IMG/VR virus record: IMGVR_UViG_2645727604_000018
Length of the DNA stretch: 36,905 bases
From: a virus
Lineage: Duplodnaviria; Heunggongvirae; Uroviricota; Caudoviricetes
Strand: one strand, 5' to 3'
This document shows, in pieces, positions 27,001-33,000 of the stretch; positions within the stretch are counted from its first letter, which is position 1; each line of letters starts with the position of its first letter. A program made the position numbers.

Positions 27001-30000
27001 CGTTGCTAATTCAGGCAGTCACTGCCGGGGCGCTCAAATATGAGTTACACATACCGACGGTTGTCATTCCCGGTTCTGATCATAATCCGCCTTCTAACCA
27101 AGGGGAGGATTCATGAAAATCAAGCATGAACACATCCGCATGGCGATGAATGCCTGGGCGCGTCCTGATGGCGAAAAAGTTCCAGCAGCTGGAATAACCC
27201 AGGCTTATTTTGAGTTGGGTATGACGTTTCCTGAACTGTATGACGACAGCCATCCGGAAGCCTTGGCTCGCAATACCCAGAAAATTTTCCGCTGGGTAGA
27301 GAAAGACACCCCTGATGCAGTTGAAAAAATTCAGGCGTTGTTACCAGCGATCGAAAAGGCAATGCCACCTTTGCTGGTGGCCAGAATGCGCAGCCACAGT
27401 TCAGCTTATTTTCGGGAGCTGGTGGAGACGCGGGAGCGATTGGTGAGAGACGCTGATGATTTTGTCGCAGTGGCAATCGCCGGTTTCAATCAGATGAACC
27501 GTGGTGGCCCGGCAGGAAATGCTGTGGCAGTACATTGACTGACAATAGCCATATCGAATCGCTTCCGGCAACTCGTGAGTAAAAAGATTCGGTATCAGAA
27601 GAGGTGAGTATGGCTAACGCCTGGCTCAGATTATGGCATGACATGCCAAATGACCCTAAGTGGCGAACAATTGCCAGGGTGTCAGGGCAGCCAATTGCAA
27701 CAGTGATGGCAGTGTATATCCACCTCCTGGTGAGCGCGTCACGAAATGTCACGCGAGGTCACATTGATGTCACGACAGAAGATTTGGCAAGTGCGCTCGA
27801 CGTAACAGAAGAGGTAATTGATTCAATTTTGCAGACGATGCAGGGGCGGGTACTTGATGGTGATTTAATCACTGGATGGGAAAAACGCCAAGTGCTTAAA
27901 GAGGACAACGGCAATATATCGCAAACCGCAAAATCTCCTGCAGAGCGCAAGAGGGCGCAGCGAGAGAGGGAAAGAAAGCGGGAACAAAATGGCGATTGTC
28001 ACGGCGCGTCACGAAATGTCACGCACATGTCACGACGAGTCACGACAGATAAAGATACAGATAAAGATACAGATCAAGAAGATCAAAATACTATGGTCCA
28101 TGGCGTAAAAAACGCCACGAACCAGGCAGGGGATGTTCAGGCCGTCAATCCTGGTCAGCCAGCAGGCACGACACCGGAAGCCGATTCAGCGTATGCGCTG
28201 AAAGCCGATTCGGGCGCTGTGCAGCAGGTGATGACCGCAAGGCCGGAGCAATCACACCAACTGCAGCAGCCTGAAGCCGATTCCGCCATTCAGCGGGAAG
28301 CCGATCGGGTAGTTCCGGAAAACACCGGGCAGTCTGTGGGACGAGTGGATTATCCGGATGTGTTCGAACAGGTCTGGCGGGAGTACCCGTTGCGTGCTGG
28401 GGCAAACCCGAAGAAATCCGCTTTCAGTGCCTGGAAGGCCAGATTACGCGAGGGGGTGCCACCAGAGGCCATGCTGGATGGCGTGAGGCGTTACGCAAGA
28501 TATCTGGCGGCTACCGGGAAAGCGGGAACGGAATTTGTTCAGCGAGCGACGACGTTTTTTGGACCGGACCGGAATTTTGAAAACCCCTGGTTGCTCCCGG
28601 TAAGCGGTACGAATAACCAGCGTTGCGTGAATCACATTTCTGAACCAGATACCGAAATTCCACCGGGCTTCAGGGGGTAAGTGTTGATTTCTGGTCATGA
28701 GGTAATTTTCAGGAGGACTTGTGGCAAAAGTTTTTACACAAGAAGAGCGAGAAAAAATTAAAGGGCAGGTTGTTGAACTCGTACGCCAGAGTGGGCGTGA
28801 GACGTTACGGCAACTGGAAGTCAAGACAGGTGCGACAAGATATCTGATGAGCGTTCTCGCAAGAGAGCTGGTTGCCAGCGGCGATGTATACAACTCTGGT
28901 TACGGGTTATTCCCGTCTGAACAGGCGCGTAAGGACTGGCAAAATGCCCGTAAAAAGCTCTCAAGGGCAAAGCTGAAGAAACCATCTGCGGTTGATCCGG
29001 ACCTTATCTGGTCATTACCTGATGGAGAAATACGTCGTTACGACAGGCGTCATAATATAATTTGTACTGAGTGTCGTAAAAGCGAAGTTATGCAGCGGAT
29101 ATTGTCGTTTTATCAGGGGGATGTTCGGTATTTTTTGAAGTGACGAGATTAAAGTGCATTAGTTCAGATGTAAATTGACATTTTGTGGCACAGGGTAGAG
29201 CTAGCGTGGTTGTCCGCTTTGTGCCAAAAGCAGACATTGATAACATTGAGATATGTTAATTTATAGGGAGCAGCTCAAGGCCCACTGGAACTTCCAGTTT
29301 TTGCCCCTGAAACCGTTCCCAATGAGCACTTCCATCTGAAGACTGCGCAGTCTTAGTTTTCGTTGCCTTTAGTTTATCCCTTTATGATACCGATAAAAAC
29401 TTTTTTTTAATTTCTGCTGCCGTTTTCTCCATGCTGGGATATACAGTGCTTTCGGATATATTAAGCTGCGCCAGCTCTTCCAGAATTTTATTTTTGTTCG
29501 CTATCTCCACTCTGTTAAGAGGAAACTCAGCATCTGTTTCCGGTAAAATGGGATCAAGTCCGAACAGAAGAAAAGCTCCTGCCTGAGATTGTATGCGTTC
29601 ATTATTTATTTTAGCCTTAAGGAAAACAACTTTCCTTAAGTCATCAGGAATTATTCTGTTTCTAAAATATGATTTTTCATTCTGTATAAGGTCTGCAAGT
29701 TTATCAGTGAGTTCAGATAACTCCATATTACCTTTTCTGGAATCAGAGGAGGACAATTTTTCCAACTCTTCGTAAGATAAAAGTGATAAGTTTGCTATAC
29801 AGCTCACTGTATCTGAGTCGAAATATTTAATTTTCTTTCTATTTGTTGAAAACGAAATCACCTGTCCGTTTTCATTGGGGTTCGAACAGCAAGCAAAATA
29901 TAATGCTATCAGTGGGTTAGATGTAATGTCTAAGAGTCTTGTAGGCAAGCCATAATGCTGCATGCGGACAAGTTTATCAATCGTAAATTTATCCTCCTTA

Positions 30001-33000
30001 AATTCATTTGGTCTTGCGCTGAGTATTTCACGTACTAAATCAGATTCTGAAGCAAGATGCCTGTACGTCCCGTTTTGATTTTTTCTGTAAAGAGAGGGGA
30101 CAAGCTCATATGAGCTTTTAGAGTGTCCACGATAAAAGGTAATGAGACCATCACGAAAGTTTTTCTTTATGAAATTAAGATAATCTATAATATTCTCGAC
30201 TACTGGGTATGTTTGTTTTTTTAATTTGATTGTACCTTTGAGGTGACTATTTTGTTTGTTTAAACCAAGTGATTCCAGAACAATATTTAAATCCTTATTT
30301 TTTACTGCCCAATGTGTACGGCTTAACCCGAAAGATCCTAGCCCTAGGGTTTCTTTATATAATGTCGTTTGGGGATTCGTTATTTCTCCAAAATTATGAT
30401 TAATCTTGAAAGAAAATAAAATATCGCCACCATCTTTACGTAAATTTCTTATTTCCCCAAGTCTGATCCTGATGTACTTGTTTGTATCATATTCATCATC
30501 TTTTGTATAAGTTTCGGTCATGAACAATACTGGTAGCTTGGCGAGTTCTCTTAAGGTATCGGGTCTTATTGGTGTTAATTTACTGTAAATATCGCTTGGG
30601 GTGCCTTCCAGCATGCGGGACATCGAGAATCTTTCCTCGCCTTCTGTAAGCCCTGGGTCCATACACGGCCAGCGGTCAAAAACGTCCGGTTCTCCGGCCA
30701 TGATTAAGCTAAACATCGCAATCTCCTAAATTTACTTGCTAAAGTCAGTGTACTTTTATCATGTTGCTTCATTGTGTATGAAAGTAACATTGGTTGTCCA
30801 TGCTCGTTTGTCTCTCATAATTCACAAATTTGCGAATATTTTTTATAAAAAATTCAAAACAGATAGGTTGACACAATCAAAATTCACAAAGGGCACCTGC
30901 TTCTAATGTGGTTACGGCCCGATCATACGGGCAATGTCTTTCCATTATTGAAAACTCCGGGATCAACCATGATATATGAAGTCTCTTGCTATCCAGTTAA
31001 GTAAATGTCTGCTTCTCGCTCAAAGTGGGCTAGAAGGTTAGCTTGCGTCGGACTTGGCGTATTTAAAGAAGTGCTGGTGGTGACTGGTTATTGTGTTCCA
31101 TTTCTACAGAACAAAATCACAGAAACTATACCCAATAGTTGTATTGAATCACTGACGAGACAGCCTCATATTTATCAGGACTGATGTACGTCCAATACAG
31201 GAGGTTGTGGTGCTGGTTCTCAAATGTGCGCTGGCTATTGCTGCCTTAATGGCAATTTATTGCCTTGCTGTTGTTCTTATGGATCGCCTTTCTGACTGAT
31301 TTCATATTGGCGAGGTAACGGGAGTTAAGTAGAATGGCTGCGGGTGCTTGAGGCTATCTGTCTCAGGCATGAACACCAAAGGCAGATAGAGAAAAGCCCC
31401 AGTTAACATTACGCGTCCTGCAAGACGCTTAACATTAATCTGAGGCTCAATCTATGAACGGCAAATCTAGGTTAGCCTCTTACGTGCCGAAAGGCAAGGA
31501 GAAGCAGGCTATGAAGCAGCAAAAGGCGATGTTAATCGCCCTGATCGTCATCTGTTTAACCGTCATAGTGACGGCACTGGTAACGAGGAAAGACCTCTGC
31601 GAGGTACGAATCCGAACCGGCCAGACGGAGGTCGCTGTCTTCACAGCTTACGAACCTGAGGAGTAAGAGACCTGGCGGGGGAGAAATCCCTCGCCACCTC
31701 TGATGTGTCAGGCATCCTCAACGCACCCGCACTTAACCCGCTTCGGCGTTTTTTCCGTTGATTAACTCTAGTTATTAGAGAACCGAACTTTTATTGATGG
31801 GGCAGGGAGATGAAGAAACTTGTTTTAGTCGCAGGTGTAATGATTGCAACAGTAATGTTGGGAGGGTGTGCAGCAAAGGTCGATCCAGCGTTGAAAGCAG
31901 AAGCAATGAAGCCACTAACATGTAATGATGAAAAGCAATGTGACTTTTATTGGAAACGAGCGCAATTCTGGTTGGCTAATAATTCCTCATGGAAAATTCA
32001 AACGGCGACAGACACGCTAATTTCCACTTATAATCCCTCTCCAAATAGTCCATTCCTCGCTTATCAAGTGAGTAAAATGCCAAATGAAGATGGATCCTCA
32101 AGAATTTTCATCAAGCCTTTTTGCGATAATATGTTTGGCTGTCAACCAAACCCCTATCAGGCAGTTGTTTCCTTTAAAAACTTCGTTAAAACAGGGCAGT
32201 AGTGTATAGCTTGGACGATAAATTATTAGTGAAAACGCCGTAAACCCTCACCCAATGTGGACTAAGCCTATCAAACATGACTGTGATGATTAGTCCGTAG
32301 TTGTTGCCTATGAAATCTGGATTGAGTCAGGGTTTAATCCAATAATTCTTCTATCGTTCCTTTACAAGTCCGGTATATTACTTTCAGTTTGTTTTAGCAT
32401 ACCCGCTTCGGCGGGTTTTGTTTTTTCCTGGCATTCTGGTTTACAATTCGCACGCCAGCCTGAACAACTGGCACCTGCTGCGCCAGCAGAGACAACCGAT
32501 GGCGCACGATACCAAATTACACAATTCTGATGATTTTGCCGTCTTTGCCAGCAGGCACGGGCGGCGTTCCCGCACTTTCAAATCTGACTGGTTCCAGCAT
32601 GACCCATGCACTGAAGAACAGGCCGAGTGGCTAATTCAGTGCTACCGCAGACACGGATACGAGATTAAGAAAGCCCTCAGCCTCGATTATCGTCACTGGA
32701 TAATCTCCGTCAGGCTTCCTTACTCTGAACGCCCACCGCGTCCGTCCCGCACATTCCAGCAACGCATCTGGAGGTAACGTGCGGGTATTACTTCGACCTG
32801 TTCTGGTACCGGAACTCGGGCTGGTGATCGTTAAGCCGGGCCGTGAATCCATGCCGGTATTCCACAATACCCGGGTATTGGTGGAGCCGGAACCGAAAAG
32901 CATGCGTAATCTGCCGTCCGGGGTCGTTCCTGCCGTTCGCCAGCCGCTGGTGGAAGACAAAACATTGCTGCCGTTTTTCAGTAACGCACGGGTGATTCGT

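Follow-up and report, generated by a model that had tools for sequence, protein, structure and literature searches.

The FRG gene and its exchangeable cassette

The DNA analyzed here, referred to as the window, is the whole 36,905-nucleotide stretch of the IMG/VR virus record IMGVR_UViG_2645727604_000018 (Caudoviricetes), which carries a lambdoid prophage. Our subject is a minus-strand gene in the right arm of this prophage, here called the FRG gene, which encodes a two-domain protein with a predicted role in defence against other phages (Table 1). The initial annotation, made without database searches, had described a minus-strand open reading frame (ORF) of 444 codons with three motifs, and all of them are present in the translation: FYRGH (residues 194-198), YELVPSLYR (residues 203-211), and RLLDIT (residues 260-265). 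The probability of 444 stop-free codons arising by chance is ~6e-15 at the regional base composition, and the orthologue is labelled 'FRG domain-containing protein' in RefSeq. As had also been claimed, the gene has its own Shine-Dalgarno sequence and is AT-rich, with a GC content of 36.9% (37.3% for the cassette described below) versus 50.1% for the flanking right-arm genes, and it lies between an O-like replication gene plus a DUF977 gene on one side and sok/hok on the other. The statement that the right arm has no other large gene on the minus strand holds for the part within the window, 26.8-36.9 kb, where the remaining minus-strand ORFs all overlap plus-strand genes.

BLASTN comparison with the phages Evi and mEp460_ev081 shows that homology stops at 29238-29242 and is back at 31004, from which it follows that the 1,765 bp in between are exchanged as one unit. 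The proposed insertion is thus supported by the sibling phages, and so is the proposed moron-like location: the cassette is an exchangeable unit of atypical composition amid conserved phage genes, in a slot where the siblings keep other cargo. Four alternative cargos were examined in the comparison of this slot. In mEp460_ev081 (L004:3440-4789) it holds a minus-strand gene encoding a 449-residue homologue of PD-T7-1 (PADLOC E = 4e-157), which is among the 21 defence systems obtained by functional selection in E. coli (Vassallo et al. 2022). This gene was also considered as a diverged homologue of the FRG gene and was rejected, there being no BLASTP similarity. The slot of Evi contains an HTH-cupin regulator and a GNAT gene, and that of HannyBb (L003:3050-3975) a 68-residue DNA methyltransferase fragment together with QueH (epoxyqueuosine reductase family, E = 1.9e-65), a cargo for nucleic-acid modification, not defence. 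The FRG cassette is also present in Tritos, one of the prophages of strain LF82. We know of no description of the DUF977-hok slot in this prophage group as a hotspot, no dedicated search having been made.

Transcription was assessed in RNA-seq data of the LF82 lysogen (Misson et al., PMC9928086; values are log2(fpkm+5)), in which the Tritos orthologue LF82_282 (TRITO_38) is 97% identical to the FRG gene. LF82_282 reaches 5.19 and 4.69 in LB stationary phase, 6.7-6.8 in macrophages, and 9.27 and 9.23 in the condition labelled B6, the same as the CI repressor there. Its overall range of 4.7-9.3 is to be compared with 2.3-4.8 in all conditions for the adjacent cro, Rha-like, replication, and DUF977 genes. 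Since these flanking lytic genes remain low, transcription of the orthologue in the lysogen is independent of theirs; it varies with the condition and is modest in LB. Read-through from the nearby, co-directional Sok promoter may contribute to the signal.

The non-coding region upstream of the FRG gene presumably holds a promoter of its own, the sole consensus-like one there being the weak TGGACA-18-CACAAT at 30800-30771. Past the 3' end of the gene, a perfect 16-nt palindrome, AAGACTGCGCAGTCTT, might conceivably, judging from its sequence, act as a plus-strand terminator that blocks read-through of the replication operon antisense into the FRG gene; it is not among the calls of the terminator scan.

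Table 1. Features of the FRG cassette and of the surrounding prophage, in window coordinates
Feature	Position	Strand	Description
Swap cassette	29239-31003		1,765 bp, 37% GC; FRG gene, ~140 bp past its stop, and 287 bp before its start
FRG gene, coding sequence	29382-30716	-	444 residues, two domains; ATG start; stop codon 29382-29384
N-module, residues 1-150	30267-30716	-	PUA-like (EVE/YTH/ASCH-type) beta-barrel, predicted sensor
Inter-domain linker, residues 151-172	30201-30266	-	Low model confidence; 15% mean identity
FRG/PDC-S15 half, residues 173-444	29385-30200	-	Predicted ADP-ribosyltransferase-like fold and NAD+-targeting effector
Pfam FRG match, residues 193-282	29871-30140	-
Shine-Dalgarno sequence AGGAG	30723-30727	-	6 nt before the ATG of the FRG gene
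Upstream non-coding region of the FRG gene	30728-31003	-	Within the cassette
Perfect 16-nt palindrome, then AGTTTT	29339-29360	+	In the cassette, past the FRG gene 3' end
tRNA-Ser	20417-20506		Lambdoid prophage integrated just beyond
Integrase	20559-21584	-
DicF small RNA	24932-24983	-
ORF at the cI position	26156-26794	-
ORF at the cro position	starts 26838
O-like replication gene	27604-28680		Left of the FRG cassette
DUF977 gene	28721-29143		Between the O-like gene and the cassette
sok/hok	31342-31666		Beyond the cassette; sok antitoxin region 31342-31516
DUF968 gene	32779-33828
ORFs at the rusA and Q positions	33841-35033
STnc100 small RNA	35805-35995	+
AgvB, anti-GcvB small RNA	35996-36057	-

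Domain architecture of the FRG protein

The initial annotation had expected a Pfam FRG domain (PF08867) and possibly an N-terminal effector domain. The former scored 79.9 bits (cut-off 25) and is the sole Pfam match in the protein; in place of the latter, residues 1-150 form a module of predicted PUA/EVE/YTH fold that resembles a sensor (the N-module). The C-terminal half falls into the PADLOC candidate family PDC-S15, with profile PDLC04936 matching residues 166-440 (E = 2.7e-99) and 13 more PDC-S15 profiles matching as well. The best-matching of these are 286-300 positions long. The C-terminal 275 residues match the PDC-S15 profiles end to end and, as in that family, the gene is a single-gene unit with no conserved partner; the difference lies in the additional 150-residue N-module, which no model of PADLOC or Pfam covers. 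The full length of the protein is spanned by a PHROG whose function is unknown, and the NCBIfam search gave no match. Homology to a structural or metabolic phage protein, named beforehand as part of the outcome that would speak against the annotation, was looked for with Pfam, PHROG, and NCBIfam, and none was found.

The AlphaFold2 model, built from 40 homologues (pLDDT 84.9, pTM 0.84), comprises a beta-rich N-terminal domain (residues 1-150), a disordered linker, and an alpha/beta C-terminal half. Foldseek with the full-length model found no significant match in the PDB, and PDB profile searches with the full-length and N-module alignments returned noise only. In the fold search with the C-terminal half included, a series of ADP-ribosyltransferases (ARTs) is matched, namely TreX, Tpt1, RES, diphtheria toxin, ArtA, LT, PARP15, ExoA, TccC3, and CNF. 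All of these matches are gone when the N-module is searched alone, and the ART resemblance therefore belongs to the FRG half. Frg has been assigned to the ART superfamily and proposed to be an anti-viral effector of the NADase type (Iyer, Burroughs, Anantharaman, Aravind 2022), and the assignment was repeated in a Legionella ART survey.

The [FY]-R-G motif of Pfam FRG is present as F194-Y195-R196-G197, in which R196 and G197 are invariant among the 40 homologues. The invariant positions of the FRG half are R196-G-H198, S208, R211, Q253-H254, R260, D263, T265, N267, S301-D-T-V-S-C306, and S377-Q378, and clusters of invariant polar residues occur in both halves of the protein. In the model, R196 is the last residue of the first strand, which we take to resemble the aromatic-Arg-Gly strand of the R-S-E ARTs, and the next core strand closes with T265-S266-N267, ahead of a helix, in an S-T-S-like arrangement.

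The N-module is characterized by the signature residues R34, E37, T39, E68, G87, and R133-T-H135-W136. Its fold matches are YTH domains (scores 6.6-5.4), VcaM4I (6.3), ASCH (5.9), McrB-N (4.8), and PD-T4-3 (4.1), and on the basis of the model it is predicted to have the PUA-like fold of 'modified-base readers'. A search of the N-module profile against 1.84 billion cluster representatives yielded 893 proteins at E <= 1e-3, of which 223 are at E <= 1e-10. Among the best 150 of the 893, the partner domains are CAP12/Pycsar-type TIR (22 proteins), FRG (18), Abi_C (6), TIR_2 (5), TIR (4), protein kinase (4), and SEFIR (2), with AbiJ_NTD3, class III cyclase, Schlafen/AlbA_2, EAD2, and CD-NTase seen once each. 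The TIR NADases are thus the commonest alternative partner to FRG, which fits a predicted NAD+-directed role of the latter and supports it indirectly. PADLOC assigns the N-module proteins to PDC-S15, PDC-S35, PDC-S66, PD-T4-6, and the TIR effector profiles; since these profiles span the effector halves only, the N-module is unrepresented in PADLOC or Pfam. PD-T4-6, matched by four N-module proteins, was considered as a link to a validated system and was rejected, as its profiles cover the kinase domain and never the N-module.

The constellation of signature residues, together with P62, is nearly invariant in 131 near-complete modules regardless of the effector: R34 is conserved in 99%, E37 in 97%, T39 in 98%, P62 in 95%, E68 in 98%, G87 in 96%, R133 in 98%, T134 in 90%, H135 in 98%, and W136 in 98%. 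The module as a whole diverges faster than its partner, with a mean pairwise identity of 43% versus 56% for the FRG half. One module joined to chemically unrelated effectors is the pattern that a sensor or a regulatory input would give, and the single near-invariant site kept across them speaks for a conserved small ligand rather than for recognition of variable phage proteins. The two observations together suggest a ligand-sensing switch, not a substrate-docking domain. The N-module and its pairing with FRG appear to be undescribed; the effector family is already catalogued as a candidate.

Genomic contexts and related defence systems

Full-length homologues of the FRG protein with 41-100% identity occur in Enterobacterales, Aeromonas, Rhizobium, and Sphingomonas. 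In E. coli, the gene is found in 41 of 5,426 complete genomes, always as a single chromosomal copy with full query coverage, and its alleles form three groups of 99%, 97.1%, and 94.3% identity. It sits at exactly the same locus in 28 of these 41 genomes. The 94.3% allele, in E. coli strain 2452 (L018:4702-6799, 81-1145), is located in a small defence island that borders a prophage remnant, next to Septu PtuA (1.6e-170) and PtuB (8e-34) and a DndB-like DGQHR protein. Two E. coli paralogues of 59% and 45% identity lie in P2-like prophages in the gpA-portal gene interval, which is the site of tin and old in P2 and known as the tin/old hotspot (Vassallo et al. 2022), and one of these P2-prophage paralogues adjoins a type VI retron reverse transcriptase (E = 1e-105). 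A Klebsiella homologue (51% identity) is found between the P2 gpU and tail fibre genes. The neighbouring gene of 439-465 residues in the Klebsiella P2 prophage was considered as a partner and rejected, as it has no PADLOC match and is missing from the other contexts.

In Aeromonas, the gene stands by itself on the chromosome. A gene joining the N-module to TIR stands alone near a FitA/PIN pair and insertion sequence elements, and one joining it to Abi_C is carried by a conjugative element next to HEPN_AbiV. Altogether, the genes coupling the N-module to an effector are stand-alone in 8 examined contexts, with neighbours that vary each time.

The closest working model for the FRG protein, by analogy, is the PUA-Calcineurin-CE-HAD (PUA-Cal-HAD) abortive-infection system of E. 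coli, though it is a different family. This system is switched on when m6-dAMP, released by phage degradation of Dam-methylated host DNA, is bound at its PUA-like domain, and fusions of its PUA family to HEPN, DrHyd, TIR, HNH, and McrB occur as well; FRG and ADP-ribosylation are unmentioned in the paper (Zhang et al. 2026, bioRxiv 10.64898/2026.01.15.699771). Both have an N-terminal PUA-like sensor, predicted in the case of the FRG protein, and a swappable effector. They differ in that the PUA-Cal motifs VWWGWWxKxxExxP (motif II) and TPxYY (motif V) are present in none of the 131 N-modules, which carry SRxLExT, E68, and RTHWAxK instead, and in that the effector of the FRG protein is FRG, not Calcineurin-CE, and has no HAD partner.

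The modification-dependent (type IV) restriction enzymes (EVE-HNH VcaM4I, McrB N-domains, PD-T4-3) likewise use sensors of the PUA superfamily but have no sequence-level relation to the FRG protein, and fusions that are ART or NAD-linked are absent from the EVE census (Bell et al. 2020). Neither a nuclease (HNH, PD-(D/E)xK, or GIY-YIG) nor an McrB NTPase was detected in the FRG protein by Pfam, PADLOC, or the fold search; with an effector of predicted ART-like fold, the expected outcome is abortive infection, not DNA cleavage. With TIR-STING, TIR-SAVED, PycTIR, and DSR2 the FRG protein is predicted to share a ligand sensor that controls an NAD+-consuming domain. Unlike in these systems, its effector fold is predicted to be ART-like and not TIR or SIR2, and there is no partner gene that produces a signal. 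As a genetic element, the gene agrees with the morons of lambdoid and P2 prophages in its atypical GC content, opposite orientation, and own ribosome-binding site, and its cassette in being exchanged between conserved flanks and, for the LF82 orthologue, in being transcribed in the lysogen.

The names of the prophage genes in Table 1 derive from sequence analysis of the window and from the RefSeq annotation of the E. coli SJC33 prophage, which has 98% identity to window positions 28001-32500 and occupies the same tRNA-Ser/mtfA site. The gene following cro (27113-27538, plus strand) has counterparts with conflicting annotations, the 141-residue one of SJC33 being a 'toxin YdaT family protein' in RefSeq and that of Tritos a 'Rha family transcriptional regulator'. 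To the right of hok there is a second swap slot, at 31755-32400 of the window: homology with Tritos, Evi, HannyBb, and mEp460_ev081 stops at 31754, and with Tritos and Evi it is back at about 32398-32401. In the window this second slot contains a plus-strand ORF (31810-32202) of 130 residues with a lipoprotein-like N-terminus, MKKLVLVAGVMIATVMLGGC, for which Pfam and PADLOC gave no match. The corresponding slot of Tritos holds a hypothetical gene and an ImmA/IrrE-XRE protein, both highly expressed in the LF82 lysogen, and that of Evi is empty.

Predicted function and implications

A defence role of the FRG gene is well supported by guilt by association. The reasons are that sibling phages fill the same slot with other cargo, including the homologue of the functionally selected PD-T7-1; that the effector half matches PDC-S15 and Pfam FRG; that paralogues occupy the P2 tin/old hotspot, one of them next to a retron reverse transcriptase, and another allele neighbours Septu; and that the N-module is shared among defence effectors, in genes that stand alone, one of which is transcribed in a lysogen. 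Prophage hotspots are among the main reservoirs of defence systems (Vassallo et al. 2022). The conserved site of the N-module, its faster divergence, and the ART resemblance of the FRG half also count in favour of a sensor-effector protein. With PUA-Cal-HAD providing a precedent for the combination of sensor and effector, we favour, with somewhat better than even confidence, the reading that the FRG gene is a prophage moron, gained by horizontal transfer, that encodes a single-protein abortive-infection defence against phages, consisting of a sensor and an NAD+-targeting effector.

By such a mechanism, the putative PUA-like pocket of the N-module (R34, E37, T39, E68, R133, H135, and W136) would bind a nucleotide-like cue born of the infection, which could be a mononucleotide, free and perhaps modified, or some feature of a nucleic acid. 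Once the ligand is bound, the C-terminal FRG domain would be released or assembled, and this predicted enzyme of the ART superfamily would then consume NAD+ or ADP-ribosylate an essential target. The infected cell would be halted before the cycle of the superinfecting phage ends, and the lysogen population and its resident prophage would thereby be protected. A bolder proposal, which we hold to be possible but doubtful, is that the N-module represents an unnamed family of PUA-like sensors (SRxLExT...E...RTHWAxK, at least 893 representatives) swapped onto killing domains (TIR, FRG, Abi_C, kinase, cyclases), that it senses a nucleotide-type danger signal other than the m6-dAMP of PUA-Cal, and that it here drives the first abortive-infection effector of ART fold (FRG) that is NAD+-targeting and tied to such a sensor.

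Position and expression also bear on a non-defence accessory function, in which the moron would be a prophage-stabilising toxin, a modifier of host physiology or virulence, or a counter-defence or lytic-cycle enzyme. The gene adjoins the hok/sok addiction module, and the expression of its orthologue in LF82 swings with growth condition, from a log2 value of about 5 to about 9.3. We nevertheless regard this explanation as very unlikely. The cassette contains no antitoxin partner, and neither a secretion signal nor structural or metabolic homology was found for the protein. Transcription runs opposite to the lytic operons and takes place while those are silent, which speaks against a lytic or counter-defence role, and the recurrent company of Septu, a retron, and the P2 tin/old hotspot, as well as the presence of relatives on a conjugative element and at non-phage chromosomal sites, does not fit an accessory function of this kind.

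The occasional cyclase domains among the N-module proteins raise another explanation, namely that the N-module is the receptor for a second messenger made by a cyclase, and the FRG protein an orphan effector of CBASS/Pycsar type that uses a cyclase encoded elsewhere. Its best support is P0182, a genuine ORF of 760 residues on a metagenome contig from ENA (L017:6001-8283, with transposases on both sides and a DruA gene nearby), in which a complete CBASS oligonucleotide cyclase (E = 1e-112) is joined to the N-module and FRG/PDC-S15, and which may be a signalling-plus-effector system in one polypeptide. One N-module protein contains a class III cyclase domain, and the top partner, the CAP12/Pycsar-type TIR, is elsewhere coupled to STING or cNMP receptors. 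Against this, no adjacent cyclase is present in the 8 other contexts examined, the FRG cassette and the neighbourhoods of the N-module-TIR and N-module-Abi_C genes included, and none lies in the prophage right arm. The cyclase of the fusions can equally be read as a further output under control of the N-module. Because the other contexts are without cyclases, we consider it quite improbable that the FRG gene depends on a messenger of this type.

Several observations weigh against the preferred reading of a sensor-controlled, NAD+-targeting defence moron. In LB, LF82_282 is below the 5x cut-off for morons and was left unscored as a moron by the authors of the RNA-seq study (PMC9928086). The promoter scan upstream of the FRG gene gave 7 sites versus 6.6 expected by chance in shuffled sequence, and the promoter prediction is therefore statistically unsupported. 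Pfam EVE, YTH, ASCH, and PUA have no match in the FRG protein or in the 150 N-module proteins, and no PDB sequence matches the N-module, which is assigned as PUA-like by fold only. The conserved site of the module is mostly polar (R, E, T, E, R, and H), with W136 as the sole invariant aromatic residue, and is unlike the aromatic cages of YTH/EVE domains or PUA-Cal; the ligand may thus be something other than a methylated base, and even a catalytic module is conceivable. The literature search found no experimental work on FRG proteins, and PDC-S15 is listed as 'candidate' only.

A last point against the preferred reading concerns the active site of the FRG half. No invariant Glu precedes strand 381-385, where the catalytic Glu of the R-S-E and H-Y-E ARTs is expected. 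An invariant S377-Q378-x-G380 is present at this site instead, in a loop that is poorly modelled (pLDDT < 50 at 371-377). With no such Glu seen, the chemistry is left between two options: judging from the model, it may be NAD+ hydrolysis or ADP-ribosyl transfer, by a perhaps atypical catalytic mechanism. Possible but unlikely, in our view, is that the same defence protein is a true transferase, in which FRG, docked by an N-module that binds nucleic acid, would attach ADP-ribose to DNA, RNA, or a protein of phage or host, in the manner of DarT, CmdT, or Tpt1. The N-module is also found on TIR, kinase, and Abi_C domains, whose substrates differ, which argues for a switch rather than a substrate dock; the catalytic Glu of a transferase was not identified; and Iyer et al. 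(2022) prefer an NADase role.

If the preferred reading is true, the FRG/PDC-S15 candidate family, with its thousands of genes, would become a real defence system with defined chemistry. The N-module would be a second family of PUA-like danger-signal sensors beside that of PUA-Cal-HAD and unrelated to it in sequence, and it would offer a handle on the infection cue of the single-protein systems with TIR, FRG, kinase, and Abi_C effectors. The DUF977-hok junction of a common group of E. coli lambdoid prophages would be a defence hotspot that can be mined, and there would be a bearing on the host range of phages used in therapy in the ~0.8% of E. coli that carry the gene, including the Crohn's-associated strain LF82.

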